A model generated the notes under the pieces. That model had not been told where the DNA came from and searched no databases. It saw only the letters and a program-made list of their open reading frames with translations. Below are positions 27,053 through 37,115 of a DNA stretch of 64,000 nt, in pieces (position 1 is the first letter of the stretch; every line of letters starts with the position of its first letter). Source of the stretch: Planctomycetota bacterium (GTDB lineage Bacteria; Planctomycetota; UBA1135; UBA2386); assembly GCA_965223545.1 (NCBI GenBank), contig OZ245006.1:6528001-6592000 (forward strand), in the 5' to 3' direction. Both the position numbers and the translations under genes were made by a program.

Positions 27053-27511
27053 ATGGCCGAGACCTACACAATCGGGCGCCTGGCGAAGGTCGCCGAAGTT
27101 CCCATCTCAACCGTTCGCTACTACGAACAGCGCGGACTCTTGAAGCCGGAACGGCGAACTGAGTCCAACTACCGCGTCTACGGCCCGGCCAGTTTGAAGC
27201 GCTTGCGGTTTATCCGCATCGCGCAGCAAAGCGGCTTCACTCTCGAAGACATCGTGCTCCTTCTCCAGCTTCGCGACCGTGGAAGTGCCACCAGCTGCAA
27301 GCAGGTGGAAAACCTCGTCGACAAGCGACTCGACAACATCACGGCCCAGCTTCGGGAACTTCGACGCGTGCAAAAGGTCCTCCAGTCGACGCTCGAGTGG
27401 TGCAGGAACCCTCGCGTGAAAGGTCGCTGCCGAGTGCTGGACGACTTGGACGGGCAGGCCGCAAGTTCAGGGAAACGCAAATCACCGAGACGTGCCGGAA
27501 AGGCCTCTTGA
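27053..27511 (+). CDS. MerR-family heavy-metal-responsive regulator
   Basis: TIGRLAK..TVRYYEQRGLL, YRVY, GFTLEDI; Cys in SCKQ plus C-X8-C, the three-Cys pattern of Hg/divalent-metal sensors. Confidence 0.93.
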   Translation: MAETYTIGRLAKVAEVPISTVRYYEQRGLLKPERRTESNYRVYGPASLKRLRFIRIAQQSGFTLEDIVLLLQLRDRGSATSCKQVENLVDKRLDNITAQLRELRRVQKVLQSTLEWCRNPRVKGRCRVLDDLDGQAASSGKRKSPRRAGKAS

Positions 27512-27539
27512 CCCTTCACCATACTTCAAGCTGTAGCCT
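27508..27539 (+). promoter_or_regulatory. MerR-type promoter P1
   Basis: TTGACC - 20 bp - TAGCCT with imperfect dyad; ATG 7 nt downstream. Confidence 0.7.
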
Positions 27540-27546
27540 TTCCCTC

Positions 27547-28269
27547 ATGCACCCCATCCTGCGCCCAGGCCTCAGTTCGGTTCTGCTGCTCTCCCTGGTG
27601 GCTTGCTCTGAGCCACTAACAGACTCGCCAACTCACGCGCCCACTCCGGAGCTCTCGAAGCTCGTCTCGATTCGCGTCGCTGGTTTCATCGAGGCTGCAG
27701 GCATCACCTGAATGGGTTGACCGAACAAGGTCAAAGAAGCCCTGGATGGGCTTCAAGGCGTTCAGGATGTGCAGGTTGACCTCGAAGACGACAGGTTCGA
27801 TGTCACTTACAACCCGAGGGAAGTGTCTTCCGACACCTTGCTCGAGGCGGTCAGAAAGCTCGACTACACGCCGCAGCTGGTAACGCGCGCGGAGGGTGGG
27901 GGAGAGGCGCCTGCGGACCAGGTCGATGCGGCGCAGCTCCCCAAGGAACTTGCGGCGCTCTTCGCCAAGGCTCGGGAATCCAATAAGGTCGTGCTGCTCA
28001 AGTTCTCCGGGCCAGGTTGACCGCCGTGCAAACGCATGGATGCCGTGACGTATCCGCACGAAGTCGTGAAGAAGGAACTTGATGAACACTGGGTCACGAC
28101 TCACTACGACGTGAGTGAAGCGAAGCGTGTCGCTACCCTCTTCGGAGTCTCGGCGATTCCTGTTGCTATTGGTGTGACCGCTGACGGAATGGTTCTGGGG
28201 CGAGTTCTTGGGTTTGTCGAACCCGAGCGTTTCGAGAAGGAACTCGAGACACTTCGCGCCAAGCGCTAG
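27547..28269 (+). CDS. Putative triple-selenocysteine lipoprotein: HMA domain (UxxU) + thioredoxin-like domain (UxxC), 240 aa
   Basis: One frame with TGA at 27709, 27718 and 28018: GIT-U-MG-U-PNKVKEAL and FSGPG-U-PPC-KRM; lipobox LVAC; downstream hairpins; ends at TAG. Confidence 0.85.
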
Positions 28270-28865
28270 TTCGGGACCACCTTGTAGCCAGTGCGCTCAA
28301 CCGCCTGAACGACTTGCTCGTTGGCGGGAGGAGAGTTCGGCTCGAAGAACACGGTCGCGAGGCCTTCGCTGTAGTTGACGGAAGCACTTGCTACACCGGG
28401 AACCGTGAGAAGCTCCTTCTTCACGTGCACCGTGCAAGCCTCGCACGTCATGCCTTCGATTCGAACGGTCGCCTTCTCGGTCGCTGCTGCATTCGACGGG
28501 GTCGCCTCTCCCTGGTCAGGCGCGATGAGGCCTACGTAGTTCGGGAAGAGGCCAACAACCAACACCAGGGCCGTTGCGACCCAGAGCATCGCTCGGTTGA
28601 AGCGCACGAACTTGTTGCTCGGAGTCGCGCAAGTCTCCCCTGGTGCGCACGCCTGTTTCCGAAAGTAGGTGAAGTAGAAGCCACCAGCGAGAAGCACCGC
28701 TGCGCCACCGAGGAAGTAGGGACGCACAGCTTCAAACTGCGCCGAGATTCCAGCTGCAGATACGCCGAACGCAAGAAGCAGAAGGGGAAGCCAGCAGCAC
28801 GCAGACGCCACAACAGCTGCAAGCACCGACCCGAATGCGGCCAACATCCCACCGCGACCACTCAC
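28266..28865 (-). CDS. MerT-like metal transporter fused to an HMA (MerP/CopZ-like) domain
   Basis: ASACCWLPL in TM1, RPYF, CAPGETC loop, GMTCEAC. Confidence 0.88.
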   Translation of the reverse strand: MSGRGGMLAAFGSVLAAVVASACCWLPLLLLAFGVSAAGISAQFEAVRPYFLGGAAVLLAGGFYFTYFRKQACAPGETCATPSNKFVRFNRAMLWVATALVLVVGLFPNYVGLIAPDQGEATPSNAAATEKATVRIEGMTCEACTVHVKKELLTVPGVASASVNYSEGLATVFFEPNSPPANEQVVQAVERTGYKVVPN

Positions 28866-29278
28866 GATGTGGCCTCCTTGACGGCTTTTCTGAGGTCACC
28901 AAGACAGCACGACCCCTTCGGGTTCATCGTCTCGCAGCTGCATTCGCCAGCCTTCACCTTCGCGGTCACGGATTCCACGACGGCGCTCTCTCCGGTGCGA
29001 AGCACTTCGTCGCGGATGCTCTCCGCGCTGTGCCCGAAGCAGTAGCAGACCGGGTGGGGAGCGTCTGTCTCCTTCACCCCGACTCGGACCGCGACGTCGT
29101 CCTTGAGCAGCGTCGTTCCATCGCCTGCGAAGTAGACAACATCACAGTCGGGCTCTGGGCAAAACACCCACTGTCGCCCCTCAACAGCGCCTCGCACTTC
29201 TTCTCGCGCGAGGCTCTCGACCGTGACGGTCTTGACCGGCTTTCCTGGCGTCTTGGTCTTGGGGCAGAGAAGGTCCAT
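28862..29278 (-). CDS. CopZ N-terminal-like Zn/(2Fe-2S) Cys-rich protein
   Basis: FCPEPDCDVVYF, VCYCFGH, CSCETMNPKGSCC. Confidence 0.8.
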   Translation of the reverse strand: MDLLCPKTKTPGKPVKTVTVESLAREEVRGAVEGRQWVFCPEPDCDVVYFAGDGTTLLKDDVAVRVGVKETDAPHPVCYCFGHSAESIRDEVLRTGESAVVESVTAKVKAGECSCETMNPKGSCCLGDLRKAVKEATS

Positions 29279-29284
29279 GCTCCC

Positions 29285-29316
29285 ATTTACGGCCTTGAAC
29301 CCTGCTTTAGGGTCAA
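29285..29316 (-). promoter_or_regulatory. MerR-type promoter P3
   Basis: TTGACC - 20 bp (ctaaagcagggttcaaggcc) - GTAAAT, just upstream of the ATG at 29278. Confidence 0.65.
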
Positions 29317-29353
29317 GGGTTTTTCGGAGAATGACCAAGAAGCCCGCGCAACG

Positions 29354-30154
29354 TCACTTGTGGAGCAACTCGACGACCTTGTCCACGGCGTTCTTCGACG
29401 GCACGCGCACCGCGCCTACGAACTTGCCGTCCGCATCCAACACCACCAGCCCTGGGATGGGGGCGTCCTCGTGCTCGTGCTTGAACTTGTAGGCATGCGG
29501 TCTCCTCACGATGACGCGCACGGCATTCTTCGAGGTTTCGATGACTTGCTCGTCGTTCACGATGTCTGAGAGCGCACGGCTCTCAAAGCGGGTGCTTGGT
29601 CATCAAGTCTCTGCGCCAGAAAGCCCCACAAGAACGAGCTTCTTCTCCTTCTTGGCCTTCGCAACCGCATCAGCCAGCGACGCAAGGCTTGCGAACTGCC
29701 ACTCAAGGCGCGGCTTCTCGGGAGCCTTCATCTCCTTGGCCCCGAGCGATACCGAGACTTTCTCTTCCTTCAACGTCTTTGCGCGCAGCACGACGGCCTC
29801 GAGCTTCTTCCCAGGCTTACTCACACGCAACACATCGGCGATGTCGTCCTGGCTGAAGAGTTCGACTGCGCCGAGCTTCACGAGCACGTCACCGGCCTCG
29901 ATGCCTGCTTTGCCAGCGGCGCTGTCCTTCTCCACATCTGAGACAACCTGGCCGCGAGCTCGGACCTCGAACTTGAGGTCGAGCTGCTTGACCTCTTCCT
30001 TGGATGGAGCGCGCGTGCTCGCGCCGAGTGTTGCGACCTTGACGAGCTTCGGTTCCTTCTCTTGAGGGTCTTGGTCTGGCTTCTCTTGCGCTGCGACCGG
30101 GCAGCAACAGAGAAGCCCAACGACCGGGCCTAGAAGGTGACGGGTCCTGACCAT
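29354..30154 (-). CDS. Putative selenoprotein: signal peptide + PDZ + thioredoxin-like domain with tandem UU, 266 aa
   Basis: TGA TGA at 29605-29600 within KLVLVGLSGAET-U-U-PSTR; frame stays open into a Trx C-terminal half (IPGLVVLDADGK); 9-bp hairpin at 29565-29587. Confidence 0.8.
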
Positions 30155-30187: not shown

Positions 30188-30219
30188 ATTGTCCACCCTC
30201 AACCATGGTGCATGGTCAA
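30188..30219 (-). promoter_or_regulatory. MerR-type promoter P2
   Basis: TTGACC - 20 bp (atgcaccatggttgagggtg) - GACAAT. Confidence 0.7.
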
Positions 30220-31874: not shown

Positions 31875-34800
31875 TCATGACCGCTGCCGTCGGATGCCCC
31901 GTCCGAACAATGCATACAGTGCCGGCAACACCATGAGCGTAAGGAGGTTGTCAGCGATGACTCCGCCGATCACGACCGTCGCCAGGGGCCTCTGCACCTC
32001 GGCGCCGACGCTTGTGTTCAACGCCATCGGAACGAACCCGAGCGCGGCAACCAGCGCCGTCATCAGGATCGGGCGCAGGCGCAGGAGTCGGGTCGCCTCG
32101 ATTGCGTCCTCCACCGAGTGCCCCTCGTCGTCGATCTTGCGGCGGATCGTCGAGACCAGCACGAGGCCGTTGAGCACCGAGACACCCGAGACCGCAACGA
32201 AGCCGACCCCGGCGGATATCGTGAACGGCATGTCCCGCAGCCACAGCGCGACAATCCCACCGAACGCCGCGAACGGCGCGCCCGTGGCGATCAAGAGTGC
32301 ATCGACCAACGAGCGTGTGCTCAGGTAGAGCAAGAACAGGATTGCCGCCAACGCGATGGGAATGATGATCATCAGCCGGGTGCTTGCCCGCTGCAGATGC
32401 TCGAACTGGCCGCCGAACGACACGAAGTAGCCGGGGGGCAGCTCGACGTCTGCCGCGATCGTCTTCTGTGCCTCTTCCACGAAGCCACCCAGGTCGCGAT
32501 CCCGGACGTTGGCCTGCACGATCACGCGCCGCTTCTGCCACTCCCGGTTGATCGTCGATGGCCCCTCGACCTGGCGGAGATCGGCGAGCTCGGAGATCGG
32601 AATGCGTTCGCCGGCCTCCGTCGGCACCCAGAGCTTGCGCACAGCCATCGGATCCGCGCGGTACCCGTCGGCCAACCGCACGACGAGGTCGAAGCGGCGC
32701 TGGCCCTGACGCACTTCGCCGGCCTTGATCTCGCCGAGTGCCTGGACCAGGTCCAGCACGTGTTGACCCGGGATGCCGTGGCGTGCCAAGGCGTCGCGCT
32801 TGAGCTCGACCTCGAGTACCGGCTGCCCGGTGACCTGCTCGGCGGTCACATCGGCTGCCCCCGGAATCCTCTCCAGGACTTCTTGGATCTCCGCGGCCTT
32901 CGCCTTCAGCATCTCGAGGTCGTCGCCGAACAGCTTCACGCCGAGATCGGCGCGGATACCCGCCGTCATCTCGTTGACGCGCATCTCGATCGGCTGGGTG
33001 AAGATTGCCCGCATTCCGGGCATCACTTCGAGCGCGGTCTGCATCCTCGTCGTCAGCTCGGACTGTGTCTCCGCCTTCGTCCACTTGGAGCGAGGCGTGA
33101 GCGTGACGAACACGTCCGTGACCTCCAGCCCCATCGGGTCGGTAACAACCTGCGGAGTGCCGGTGCGACTCCAGACGTCCCGAATCTCGTCGGGGAATTC
33201 ATCCTTCAACAGCTGCTCGAGTCGTAGCCCGTAACGCACCGACTCATCGAGAGAGACACCGGCCAGCCGCACGGTGTTGATGGCGATCGCCTCCTCGTAG
33301 AGACGCGGGATGAAGGTGGTGCCGAGACGCGTCGCCAGCAGAGCGCCCACGACCAGAACGGCGAGACCGCCCAGCGCCACCGTGCGCCGGAAGCGAATCG
33401 CGAAGCGGACGACCGGGCGGTAGACCCACTGCGCGAATCGGACGATGGGGTTCCCTCGTTCGGCTGCTTTCCTGCCGAGCCCGAAGCTCGCAAGCACCGG
33501 GATCAGCGTCAACGAAAACACCAGCGAACCGGTCAATGCGAAGATGACCGTGAGCGCCATCGGCCGGAAGAGCTGGCCCTCGATGCCTTCGAGCAGCAGA
33601 ATCGGCAGGTAGACGATCAGGATGATCAGCTCACCGAACATCGTCGGCTTGCGCACCTCGAGAGTAGCGTCCCGTACGATGTCCAGGGTTGGTCTCGTGC
33701 CGCGCTCGAGTCCCAGGCGCCGCACGCAGTTCTCGATGATGATCACCGAGCTGTCGACGACGAGACCGAAGTCGATCGCGCCGAGGCTCAGCAGACTCGC
33801 GGCGATGCCGAAGCGCAGCATCGCGCTGAACGAGAACAACATGGCCAGCGGGATGGCCGCGGCGACGATGAGTCCTGCACGCAGGTTGCCGAGGAACACG
33901 AACAGGACGGCGATCACCAGGAGCGCGCCCTCCAGGAGGTTCGTGCGCACCGTCGCGATCACGCGGTCGACGAGTTCGGTCCGTTCGTAGAGGACATCGA
34001 TCTCTACGCCCTCGGGCAGGCTGTTCCCCGCCTCTAGGAGCCGCTTCTCGAGCCGCTGCGTCACGTCGTGACTGTTCTCACCCATCAGCATGAAGCCGAG
34101 CCCCAGCACGACCTCGCCCTTGCCGTTGGCCGTCACCGCGCCGCGTCGGATCTGGTGACCATCGCGCACATCGCCGACATCGCGCAGAAGCACCGGCACG
34201 CCGTCGTGTGCCGTCACGACGATCGACTCGAGCTGGGCGATCGTCGTCGCCAGGCCGATGCCGTGCACTAGATGCAGCTCTCCGGCATCGGCGATGACGC
34301 CACCGCCAACGTTCTCGTTGTTCTTGCGCAGCGTTTCGATGACGTCGTCAAGCGTCAGGCCGTACTTGATCAGCCTGTAGGGGTCGACGATCACGTGATA
34401 CTGCCGGCGCTCGCCTCCCCAAGTATTCACTTCGGCCACGCCGGGAACGGTGAGCAGCTGAGGGCGGATGACCCAGTCGTGCAGCGTGGTCAGCTCGGCC
34501 AGCGAGTGCTTCTTGCCGCGCACCACGTAATGCAGCACTTCACCCAGCCCGGTCGCCACCGGCCCCATCTGTGGCCTCGGCAAACCCGCGGGCAGCTCGA
34601 CTGCCTGCAGCCGTTCGTTGATCAGCTGCCGCGCGAAGTAGATGTCCGTCCCCTCGTCGAACACGGCCACGACCTGCGAGAACCCGAACTTCGAGACCGA
34701 GCGCACGTCGCGCAGCGCCGGCAGACCGCCGATCGTCTGCTCGACAGGGAACGTGATCTGCTGCTCGATCTCGGTGGGGTTCAGCGACGGCGCCCCGGTG

Positions 34801-34949
34801 TTGATCTGCACCTGCACCGGAGTCGTGTCGGGGAACGCGTCGATCGGCAGCCGCGCAAGTGACCAGAATCCCGCTCCGATGAACCCAGCAGAGAAAACGA
34901 GGACGATGAGCCGATTGCGCAGCGACCAGGAGACGATGGCGTCGAACAT
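31875..34949 (-). CDS. czcA: CusA/CzcA heavy-metal efflux RND permease
   Basis: PIDAFPD, SLGAIDFGLVVD, RLRPILMTALVAALGFVPMA, GAEVQRPLATVVIGG. Confidence 0.93.
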   Translation of the reverse strand: MFDAIVSWSLRNRLIVLVFSAGFIGAGFWSLARLPIDAFPDTTPVQVQINTGAPSLNPTEIEQQITFPVEQTIGGLPALRDVRSVSKFGFSQVVAVFDEGTDIYFARQLINERLQAVELPAGLPRPQMGPVATGLGEVLHYVVRGKKHSLAELTTLHDWVIRPQLLTVPGVAEVNTWGGERRQYHVIVDPYRLIKYGLTLDDVIETLRKNNENVGGGVIADAGELHLVHGIGLATTIAQLESIVVTAHDGVPVLLRDVGDVRDGHQIRRGAVTANGKGEVVLGLGFMLMGENSHDVTQRLEKRLLEAGNSLPEGVEIDVLYERTELVDRVIATVRTNLLEGALLVIAVLFVFLGNLRAGLIVAAAIPLAMLFSFSAMLRFGIAASLLSLGAIDFGLVVDSSVIIIENCVRRLGLERGTRPTLDIVRDATLEVRKPTMFGELIILIVYLPILLLEGIEGQLFRPMALTVIFALTGSLVFSLTLIPVLASFGLGRKAAERGNPIVRFAQWVYRPVVRFAIRFRRTVALGGLAVLVVGALLATRLGTTFIPRLYEEAIAINTVRLAGVSLDESVRYGLRLEQLLKDEFPDEIRDVWSRTGTPQVVTDPMGLEVTDVFVTLTPRSKWTKAETQSELTTRMQTALEVMPGMRAIFTQPIEMRVNEMTAGIRADLGVKLFGDDLEMLKAKAAEIQEVLERIPGAADVTAEQVTGQPVLEVELKRDALARHGIPGQHVLDLVQALGEIKAGEVRQGQRRFDLVVRLADGYRADPMAVRKLWVPTEAGERIPISELADLRQVEGPSTINREWQKRRVIVQANVRDRDLGGFVEEAQKTIAADVELPPGYFVSFGGQFEHLQRASTRLMIIIPIALAAILFLLYLSTRSLVDALLIATGAPFAAFGGIVALWLRDMPFTISAGVGFVAVSGVSVLNGLVLVSTIRRKIDDEGHSVEDAIEATRLLRLRPILMTALVAALGFVPMALNTSVGAEVQRPLATVVIGGVIADNLLTLMVLPALYALFGRGIRRQRS

Positions 34950-34956
34950 TGAGTCG

Positions 34957-36492
34957 CTACTTGCCGAGGTGATCGACCTCGCAGCATCCCGCGCCGATGC
35001 TGCCCTTCTTGAGCTCGGTCTTGAGCAGGAAGCTGCCTCGGGTGACCACGTGATCACCCGCGTTCAGCCCCGAGAGAACCTCGTAGTACTCGCCCGTGTC
35101 GTAGCCGAGGTGGAGCTTTCGCGGCGCAAACTCGGTTCGCGACCGCTGCACGAAGGCGACGTTGCAGCACCCTTCCCACTGCACGGCGGCCTTCGGAACG
35201 AACAAGGCTGGCTCCCCGTCACGAGTCACGATCCGGACCCGGCCGAACATGCCCGCGCGCAGCTGGCCACGGTCGTTCTCGAGCTCCGCACGCACCTTTA
35301 CCGTCCGCGTCCGCGGATCGACTTGCGTGCTGATCCAGGCCACGCGTCCCGCGAAGGTCTCGCCGGGTATGCCATCCAAGTTCAGGAGAAGCGCCTGGCC
35401 GGCGGACACACCTGCGATGTCACCCTGCTCGACGTCCGCGAGGACCCAGATGCGCGACGTGTCCGCGACCGAGACCAGCGCACCCGACGGATCAGCGAGT
35501 TGGCCAATCACCGCGCGAAGCTCGACGACGATTCCAGAGAACGGCGACACGAGCTCCAATCGCGTCGACGTGTCGCCGTTCTCCAGGACTTTCGTGATCT
35601 TCGCCGCGTCGAGACCGAGGTTGCGGAGCTGCTGCTCCGCCGCTGAGACGGCGATGCGGCTTTCGGTCAGATGCGTGCTCGACTCGAGGACGTCCTTCTC
35701 GGTCGACAGACTCTTCTCGAGTAGTTGCTTCTCTCGCGCGTGGTTCCTCTCCCACAGCTCCACGCGTGCGGACGCCTGGAGAAGATCCGACTTGGCCGTG
35801 CCGAGCGCCGCGGAGTCGACGACGAGCAGCACGTCGCCGGTCTCGACGCGATCACCGAGTCGCTTGCGCACCTCGACCACGTTGCCCGGAGCGCGCGACG
35901 CCAGCACGGCGTGGCGTGTTGCGTCGTAGTACAGCTCGGCCGGAGCGGAAAGCACCCGCCGCAACGGGGCGCGGCTCACTTCGGCGACCTCCAGTCCCGC
36001 GCGAGTGGCAACGTTGGGATTCGCGAAGCGGATGGTGCTCCGCTCCGTGGCACACGTCACCGACGGCATGCGGCGGACTCTCGGTGAATCATCTCGGACG
36101 ATCTCGATCTCAGGAGTCAGTGCCGGGAGCACGCCACCCGTAGGGTCGTACTTGCGGTACTTCTCCAGTGTGCCCGGATTGCAGAGCTCGCACTGTGACT
36201 CCGACACGCCGTGTCCCCCGCACCAATCGTTGCGTGCACGGAACACCGGCTCCAGGTCGGCTCTGCAGCGCGAGCAGATTGCCTCGGGGACCCCGTGCTC
36301 TTTGCAGAAGCCCATCGACTCGAGCAGCGCCGGATCGCAGAACGGGCAGCGCTCGATGCCATGCTCGGCGCACGCACCCGCTGCACTCTCGCTGCGAGTC
36401 GCAAAGAACTCCGTCGCCCCGAAGATACCGCCACCGATCGCGGCGACGACCGCGACGAGGAGGATGCCCAACAGCTTCGCCTTCGTGCTCAT
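34957..36492 (-). CDS. RND periplasmic adaptor with N-terminal Cys/His-rich module
   Basis: MFP core (VDPRTRTVKVRAEL, LRAGMFG); three CxxHG..CxxC repeats; EGCC and terminal AGCC. Confidence 0.9.
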   Translation of the reverse strand: MSTKAKLLGILLVAVVAAIGGGIFGATEFFATRSESAAGACAEHGIERCPFCDPALLESMGFCKEHGVPEAICSRCRADLEPVFRARNDWCGGHGVSESQCELCNPGTLEKYRKYDPTGGVLPALTPEIEIVRDDSPRVRRMPSVTCATERSTIRFANPNVATRAGLEVAEVSRAPLRRVLSAPAELYYDATRHAVLASRAPGNVVEVRKRLGDRVETGDVLLVVDSAALGTAKSDLLQASARVELWERNHAREKQLLEKSLSTEKDVLESSTHLTESRIAVSAAEQQLRNLGLDAAKITKVLENGDTSTRLELVSPFSGIVVELRAVIGQLADPSGALVSVADTSRIWVLADVEQGDIAGVSAGQALLLNLDGIPGETFAGRVAWISTQVDPRTRTVKVRAELENDRGQLRAGMFGRVRIVTRDGEPALFVPKAAVQWEGCCNVAFVQRSRTEFAPRKLHLGYDTGEYYEVLSGLNAGDHVVTRGSFLLKTELKKGSIGAGCCEVDHLGK

Positions 36493-37115
36493 TCCTTCGA
36501 TTCGCCGGATGCGTACTTGCGGAACTGTGCGAGGGATCCGGGGTTGCAGATCTCACAGTGCGACTCGGGCAGGCCATGTTCGGCGCACCAGTCGTTCTTC
36601 TTGCGGAAGGCAGCTTCCAGGTCGTCGCGACATCGCGTGCAGACCGCCTCGGGAACGCCATGACCACTGCAGAAACCCATCGACGAAAGCAGTGACGGAT
36701 CGCAGAACGGACATCGCGCGATTCCGTGTTCCTCGCACTTCGCCGGCGTGGAACGGCTGTTGTCGTACTGGGCAAACTTCGCGAGGGCGCCCGGGTTGCA
36801 GGTCTCGCACTGCGACTCCGGTAGCCCGTGTTCGGCACACCAGTCGTTCTTGCCTCGAAACGCCGCCTCAAGGTCGGCGCGGCACCGTGTGCAGATCGCT
36901 TCGGGGACGCCGTGTCCGCTGCAGAAACCCATCGACCCGAGGAGAGACGGGTCGCAGAACGGGCATCTCGCGACCCCATGCACCTCGCAAGCCGCTGGCG
37001 CCGCCTTTTCGGATTCGGAGCCGGACCCGAGAAACACCTTCGTGCCGTACAGGCCGCCCACCGCAGCGGCCGCTGCGACGACCAGGGCGAGGACGATCCA
37101 CATCGTGTTCTTCAT
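36489..37115 (-). CDS. Membrane-anchored Cys/His-rich repeat protein
   Basis: N-terminal TM/signal; six CxxHG...CxxC repeats arranged as two tandem modules. Confidence 0.85.
   Translation of the reverse strand: MKNTMWIVLALVVAAAAAVGGLYGTKVFLGSGSESEKAAPAACEVHGVARCPFCDPSLLGSMGFCSGHGVPEAICTRCRADLEAAFRGKNDWCAEHGLPESQCETCNPGALAKFAQYDNSRSTPAKCEEHGIARCPFCDPSLLSSMGFCSGHGVPEAVCTRCRDDLEAAFRKKNDWCAEHGLPESHCEICNPGSLAQFRKYASGESKE

Follow-up and report, generated by a model that had tools for sequence, protein, structure and literature searches.

Bacterial selenoproteins with a thioredoxin fold carry selenocysteine (Sec, U) in UxxC, CxxU, UxxU, UxxS, or UxxT motifs. Table 1 of a 2026 catalogue lists 119 prokaryotic selenoprotein families, none with a UU motif and none with more than three Sec residues per protein (PMC13188914). 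According to the same source, the bacterial SECIS consensus has a loop of 3 to 9 nt, a G in the first two loop positions, and a spacing of 16 to 37 nt. Consecutive Sec-Sec residues were first described in the GUGUU motif of algal PDI_e, as reported in PMC7539508. A PDZ domain and a thioredoxin-like domain occur together in family NF041199, a predicted Trx7/PDZ (seleno)protein with one Sec in a CxxU motif. Here we describe a gene from a Planctomycetota bacterium, and its relatives, in which two adjacent in-frame UGA codons interrupt a predicted thioredoxin-fold domain (the UU family).

The gene lies in a 64,000-nucleotide stretch of contig OZ245006.1 (the window), whose relevant features are collected in Table 1. 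It starts with the ATG at 30154 and ends with the TGA at 29356-29354 of the minus strand. The two internal TGA codons, 29605-29603 (codon 184) and 29602-29600 (codon 185), are found inside ACT TGA TGA CCA AGC ACC and are followed by 81 sense codons, giving a U-U-P-S motif if read through. A preliminary description of this DNA had proposed a PDZ-thioredoxin protein with vicinal Sec-Sec on the basis of this open frame. The frame, its strand, and the 266-residue read-through product were confirmed, and Pfam located both the PDZ domain and a weak Thioredoxin_7 match (residues 158 to 202, E = 7e-4). The only three Cys residues of the protein all fall within the predicted signal peptide. Three of four public runs (two studies, the source of the assembly possibly among them) contained the whole gene with zero differing letters, while the fourth covered another part only. 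The tandem TGA is therefore not a sequencing error.

Table 1. Features of the UU gene and its surroundings (positions in the window)
Feature	Position	Strand	Basis or remark
MerR-family regulator with Cys82, Cys117, and Cys126	27053..27511	+	
MerR-type box before the triple-UGA neighbour	27508-27539		
Predicted triple selenoprotein, unannotated: HMA with U-M-G-U (TGA 27709, 27718), Trx with U-P-P-C (TGA 28018)	27547..28269	+	
MerT-like membrane protein fused to HMA domain	28266..28865	-	
CopZ N-terminal-type metallochaperone, directly downstream of UU gene	28862..29338	-	NF047645, over cut-off
MerR-type box of CopZ-type gene	29316-29285		
UU gene, 266 aa if read through: predicted signal peptide, PDZ, and thioredoxin-fold domain with U184-U185	29354..30154	-	
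Thioredoxin-fold domain, residues 150-266	29357..29707	-	Model, profile alignment; UGAs after first helix and strand
SECIS-type hairpin, 7-bp stem, 5-nt loop CGUGC	29567..29585	-	Fold, covariation
Tandem in-frame TGA TGA, codons 184-185	29600..29605	-	First Cys and next position of CxxC site
PDZ domain, residues 54-134	29753..29995	-	Pfam PF17820, PF13180, PF00595
Predicted signal peptide, ~22 aa, hydrophobic core, Ala-Ala-Gln end	30089..30154	-	Hydropathy, read by eye
MerR-type promoter-like site: TTGACC, 20-nt dyad spacer, GACAAT, ~34 nt before ATG	30188..30219	-	
CusA/CzcA heavy-metal RND transporter and adaptor	31875..36492	-	

A PDB sequence search returned nothing significant, and a search covering only lengths of 724 to 2065 aa found no longer homologues. 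The AlphaFold model of the thioredoxin-fold domain had a pLDDT of 89, with a poorly predicted active-site loop (pLDDT 59). Its best structural match had a Z score of 10.9 (rmsd 2.6, 109 aligned residues), followed by thioredoxin h, DsbH, and DsbD-gamma with Z scores of 10 to 11; thioredoxins made up the matches throughout. Residue 234, the Pro at the cis-Pro position, is invariant. The UGA codons interrupt the fold once its first helix and strand are complete, so neither half would be a domain by itself. In the model, the part 3′ of the pair completes a thioredoxin fold that needs both halves, as had been proposed.

Relatives were sought in 339 genomes of the class, 401 genomes of the phylum, and contig collections. 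TGA TGA was found in all 52 distinct relatives with a readable site, and sequence was conserved continuously on both sides of the pair, as the Sec-Sec reading had predicted. This set leaves out L050, L074/L097 (cut before the site), duplicates, the distant CxxC proteins L075 and L077 to L082, and L076, which is family-like and has no read-through frame at the site. L159, with TGA TGA and an internal deletion, was found later and is also outside the 52. In the host genome, a second TGA follows the TGA that ends a long frame in 79 of 7,876 cases, so the conservation of the pair is more than chance. The next stop after the pair was TGA in 24 relatives, TAG in 20, and TAA in 2; 3 have an internal UxxU, and 3 are cut. 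Within the phylum sample, the family was present in 26 of 401 genomes, and 27 of 28 matches had two TGA codons, the remaining one being cut before the site.

The family comprises two subfamilies, one with a signal-PDZ-thioredoxin architecture and one that lacks the PDZ domain and has a longer C-terminus, with widely divergent flanks in which the pair is nevertheless kept. In the PDZ-less subfamily (L098 to L108, P0103, P0161), the UU (or CC) domain is followed by a Cys-poor repeat region. An HMA-like C-terminus, suspected by eye in this subfamily, was backed by Pfam in 1 of 10 members only (E = 0.01) and is not claimed. Among 29 diverse members, the only invariant residues of the domain are Gly31, the pair, Pro70, and Pro85. 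Two degenerate members were also seen: L159 (G394) keeps TGA TGA and the hairpin and has lost most of the thioredoxin-fold domain, and L076 (G266) diverges abruptly at the UGA site. Tandem paralogues of the UU gene occur in L127 (G627), where a multi-UGA HMA-Trx gene lies between the two copies, and in L089/L109 (G556). At L129:6826-7689 (minus strand), beside a UU gene, two ORFs in one frame are joined by a single TGA and possibly encode another selenoprotein.

The default reading of this site is a double stop, with Thr183 as the last residue of a PDZ protein and a small second protein encoded downstream, or a pseudogene shared by the relatives. Databases carry the halves as separate entries, as gene callers annotate, and the family is split in two in all records examined; TGA is, moreover, the commonest stop in the host genome (7,876 of 11,420 long frames). 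TAA or TAG, however, never occurs at either codon. None of the 52 relatives has an in-frame ATG, GTG, or TTG within 8 codons 3′ of the pair, the first in-frame starts are scattered from codon 9 to beyond codon 40 with no common restart site, and a conserved Arg-Phe-Glu lies 3′ of the pair ahead of any start codon. With the break inside one fold, and with the unbroken Cys-Cys homologues and the covarying hairpin described below, we consider a double stop highly improbable.

When 1.84 billion proteins were searched with a profile, 132 matched; of these, 38 end at the site, 68 begin after it, and 26 span it. The spanning proteins comprise 10 family members with Cys-Cys at the site, 2 that have lost the pair, and 14 ordinary CxxC thioredoxins. 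Homologues with Cys-Cys had been sought as a sign of Sec-Sec, and all 10 spanning members that keep the pair have it, with no Trp-Cys among them; these, like the Cys-ending homologues, are known only from protein records. One of the Cys-Cys clusters comes from a KSB1 bacterium. In the full tree, four CC proteins are nested in the UU family with starred support (bootstrap not settled), and AU tests, run on 38 rows after masking of the site, rejected neither a single UU clade (P = 0.47) nor a single CC clade (P = 0.48). P0135, an ordinary thioredoxin-like protein with a C-C-W-C active site, is a possible intermediate from CxxC to CC.

The Cys homologues and the profile alignment also fix the register of the active site. 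At the site, S-G-A-E-T-U-U-P-S aligns without gaps to S-G-S-D-W-C-G-W-C (profile probability 98.3%, E = 2e-14). By this alignment, T183 is in the position of the Trp, U184 in that of the first (attacking) Cys, U185 is the next residue, and S187 is in the position of the second (resolving) Cys. The preliminary description had placed the first UGA at the Trp of WCxxC and was wrong on this point. The corresponding reading of the site as a UxxT motif (U-P-S-T) was rejected, since in the alignments it is a Thr that stands at the Trp, and no more than 40 of the 52 relatives retain the Thr at +4. As the Trp caveat on the first UGA falls away, the case for Sec-Sec becomes stronger. The resolving position is occupied by Ser in 32 relatives, Thr in 11, and other residues in the rest, and by Cys in none of the 52; the UU family thus lacks the Cys three residues after the attacking position that defines a classical CxxC site.

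A SECIS-type hairpin begins 14 nt past the second UGA, and its loop starts 24 nt past the first and 21 nt past the second, so that it fits the bacterial SECIS consensus for both codons. Among 27 sequences, 98.4% of cells were paired, and 15 double-sided changes were counted in 3 pairs; these counts are favored by the fact that the structure was drawn from the same sequences, which as kin are not independent. None of 500 shuffles reached the observed pairing, and slid controls gave 22 to 67%. Across 51 loci, all 7 stem pairs form in 40 loci, and 6 of the 7 in 8 more; the window's own hairpin sequence folds only modestly when taken alone (z of −1.5 to −2.8). The stem Glu codon (+7) is GAG in 49 of 49 cases, compared with 30 GAG and 11 GAA for the Glu at −2, and 48 of 51 loci have CGT or GGT as the loop codon even though the encoded residue alternates. 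This indicates selection on the RNA. A generic scan for UGA-UGA plus a hairpin returned 6 of 168 candidates, five of which lie in seemingly non-coding frames; this descriptor alone is thus not specific. A model built on the family had as its second match (E = 0.02) a single-UGA thioredoxin-like gene of the host (L182, G000:C1:1338116, minus strand). This gene encodes U-G-P-C, and its UGA is followed, at a distance of 24 nt, by the stem and loop of the UU gene.

Read-through need not insert Sec twice. One UGA could be read as Sec and the other as Cys or Trp by a near-cognate tRNA, or be skipped, or mixed products could form. One hairpin would have to serve two codons, and skipping of one codon at a Sec codon has been seen in recombinant Escherichia coli (PMC8326192). 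Among the 38 proteins that end at the site, 36 stop just before it, and 2 have a Cys at the first position as their last residue, which is what a Cys-Sec form would give. However, a direct Cys or Trp codon would cost nothing, and both codons are TGA in every relative; the Cys-Cys homologues, with none Trp-Cys, argue against partial decoding as well, as do the two hairpin spacings, which both lie within the range of the host. We regard partial decoding as unlikely.

The host genome encodes selC (tRNA-Sec), selA, selB, and selD, all over the family cut-offs, and its selD carries one in-frame TGA. An alternative genetic code was rejected, given the common use of TGA as a stop and the fact that the only tRNA with a UCA anticodon is tRNA-Sec. 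Among the 44 genomes that contain the family, selA is present in 41, selB in 40, and at least one of the two in 43, the exception being 64% complete. In the phylum, selA is present in 290 of 401 genomes (72%), in 25 of 26 with the family and 265 of 375 without it (P = 0.003, which is overstated because kin are not independent). As selA is common in the phylum, this co-occurrence is weak evidence. A scan marked the host genome as rich in predicted selenoproteins, with 58 coding-like UGA sites with a hairpin among 611. Twenty of the sites were picked by eye, and 13 of these match redox or formate dehydrogenase families with E values of 1e-12 or better, at UGA-to-loop spacings of 19 to 30 nt; the other 7 (L164, L165, L167, L173, L174, L179, L182) have no NCBIfam match at 1e-12. 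Two further host sites were noted: one (G000:C1:3168601, plus strand) encodes U-T-U, followed by a 13-bp hairpin, in a protein predicted to be exported, and the other (G000:C1:492917, plus strand) is a candidate U-C motif within a long coding frame, with a hairpin.

Two-sided conservation, the Cys-Cys homologues, the fold, the covarying hairpin, and the Sec machinery all support the vicinal Sec-Sec reading put forward at the outset. Judged from these sequence data, UGA-UGA is very likely read through as Sec-Sec.

The UU gene belongs to a metal-resistance island of lower GC (0.61 to 0.66 versus 0.70). Two CusA/CzcA-type RND pumps and a CDF are encoded there, along with a tyrosine recombinase-like gene. 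Cys82, Cys117, and Cys126 of the MerR-family regulator form what we take to be the pattern of divalent-metal sensors. By sequence, the gene has the marks of a MerR regulon member, a long-spacer dyad promoter with a MerR-family regulator nearby. The strict promoter pattern was found in 4 of 48 family upstream regions versus 21 of 3,000 random windows, and a matrix added three boxes in place, for a total of 7 of 48 family genes, of which 4 are the matrix seeds. A sigma-70 scan missed the long-spacer promoter of the UU gene. At positions 34957-37115 (minus strand), the RND adaptor and the preceding gene have repeated Cys/His-rich units in their N-terminal parts.

The HMA(UxxU)-Trx(UxxC) module encoded by the triple-UGA neighbour, whose hairpins are at 27736 and 28038, is a frequent neighbour and fusion partner of the family and can be fused on either side. 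The protein at L122:5526-7004 (plus strand; G198) combines PDZ-Trx(UU)-HMA(UxxU)-Trx(UxxC) with five predicted Sec residues, and fusion proteins in L128 and L123 have four each. The neighbour resembles the metal-binding (seleno)protein family NF041115, likewise an HMA domain with UxxU (best E = 8e-15). It differs in scoring 54.8 bits against a cut-off of 95 and in having its HMA fused to thioredoxin domains. Twenty relatives were picked by hand; in 10 of them, metal-resistance genes lie nearby or a UxxU module is fused or adjacent (12 counting two looser cases).

The preliminary description had also hinted at mercury, by analogy with vicinal Cys pairs that bind it. The soft-metal context held up, with the MerR-type regulator and promoter, the MerT-like protein, the CzcA-type RND pump, and the CDF. 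Mercury itself found less backing: among the neighbours scanned (65 ORFs), metal genes were missing for 8 of the 20 relatives, and the host genome, which is 91% complete, has no MerA match over the TIGR02053 cut-off. Capture and efflux therefore fit better than mercury reduction. If the pair is decoded as Sec-Sec, metal handling is the function that we somewhat favor.

The same Sec-Sec protein might instead be an exported thiol/disulfide redox catalyst or isomerase. A vicinal diselenide, or U184 as nucleophile with U185 as resolving residue, would then replace CxxC, the PDZ domain would recruit damaged envelope proteins, and metal stress would be only one trigger. U184 occupies the attacking position of a thioredoxin fold in which the cis-Pro is kept, DsbD-gamma and DsbH are among the nearest folds, the 8 relatives just mentioned lack metal neighbours, and UU occurs in the thioredoxin-like algal PDI_e (PMC7539508). 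The absence of a resolving Cys from all 52 relatives speaks against this function, however, and the repeated HMA(UxxU) fusions and the MerR-type boxes point to metals. On this evidence, a redox role is the main rival, though the less probable of the two functions.

Under the metal-handling function, the steps can be sketched as follows. A single hairpin would deliver SelB twice, in consecutive elongation cycles, with the loop at 24 and then 21 nt, both within the 19 to 30 nt of the host's other selenoprotein genes. The UU gene would be induced by the three-Cys MerR-type regulator, and its product exported through the predicted signal peptide. Where the active-site helix starts, a pair of selenolates could hold ions of the Hg, Cd, Zn, or Cu type; alternatively, a vicinal diselenide might cycle, with the neighbouring UxxC/CxxC thioredoxin keeping it reduced. 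Through its PDZ domain, the protein may dock on the C-terminus of some partner, and the metal may be handed on to HMA/MerT or to the RND pump. That the exported PDZ-Trx protein binds soft toxic metal ions with its Sec-Sec pair, in place of the lost CxxC, is in our judgment the leading explanation, at about even odds. The fuller picture is more tentative: one SECIS feeding SelB to two codons, Sec-Sec replacing CxxC in a new thioredoxin family, and, together with UxxU-HMA and UxxC-Trx partners in fusions with as many as five Sec residues, a periplasmic selenium metal-capture relay in Planctomycetota. The double UGA would then tie the yield of full-length protein steeply to the supply of selenium.

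Because bacterial SECIS elements lie at a constrained distance from the UGA, adjacent Sec codons on one hairpin are a natural test of the flexibility of SelB delivery, and of whether one such hairpin can serve two cycles in a row. The family offers 52 natural variants and a 19-nt element usable in a reporter, and a portable element for Sec-Sec insertion would help protein engineering. In this family, moreover, a vicinal pair would have taken over from CxxC in the active site of a thioredoxin.

A bacterial UU motif was not found in the literature searched, including the available sections of PMC13326102, PMC12013277, PMC8659212, PMC8326192, and the Haft and Gwadz preprint; the families of Haft and Tolstoy (2025) were compared through the review table and NCBIfam. 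Neither Pfam nor NCBIfam (June 2026) has a model of its own for the UU domain. In comparison with the bacterial thioredoxin-fold selenoproteins described in PMC13188914, the UU family shares a UGA at the attacking Cys, Cys homologues, and a hairpin of SECIS consensus, but has two adjacent UGA codons and no resolving Cys. It agrees in profile and fold with the Thioredoxin_7, DsbD-gamma, and DsbH-like CxxC proteins, of which it has not kept the Trp and the second Cys. NF041199 has the same two types of domain, yet the UU protein scores 36.9 bits against its cut-off of 300, in the PDZ region only (residues 58 to 160), and the Trx domain alone gives no match. Algal PDI_e is alike in being a thioredoxin-like protein with a predicted consecutive Sec-Sec. 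It is eukaryotic, however, and in eukaryotes the SECIS is found in the 3′ UTR at no fixed distance from the codon; its GUGUU motif is absent from the UU family. We conclude that the UU family very probably represents a new family of thioredoxin-fold selenoproteins in which two selenocysteines are adjacent. With its fusion proteins, the predicted number of Sec residues per bacterial protein rises from the three of the 2026 catalogue to five.
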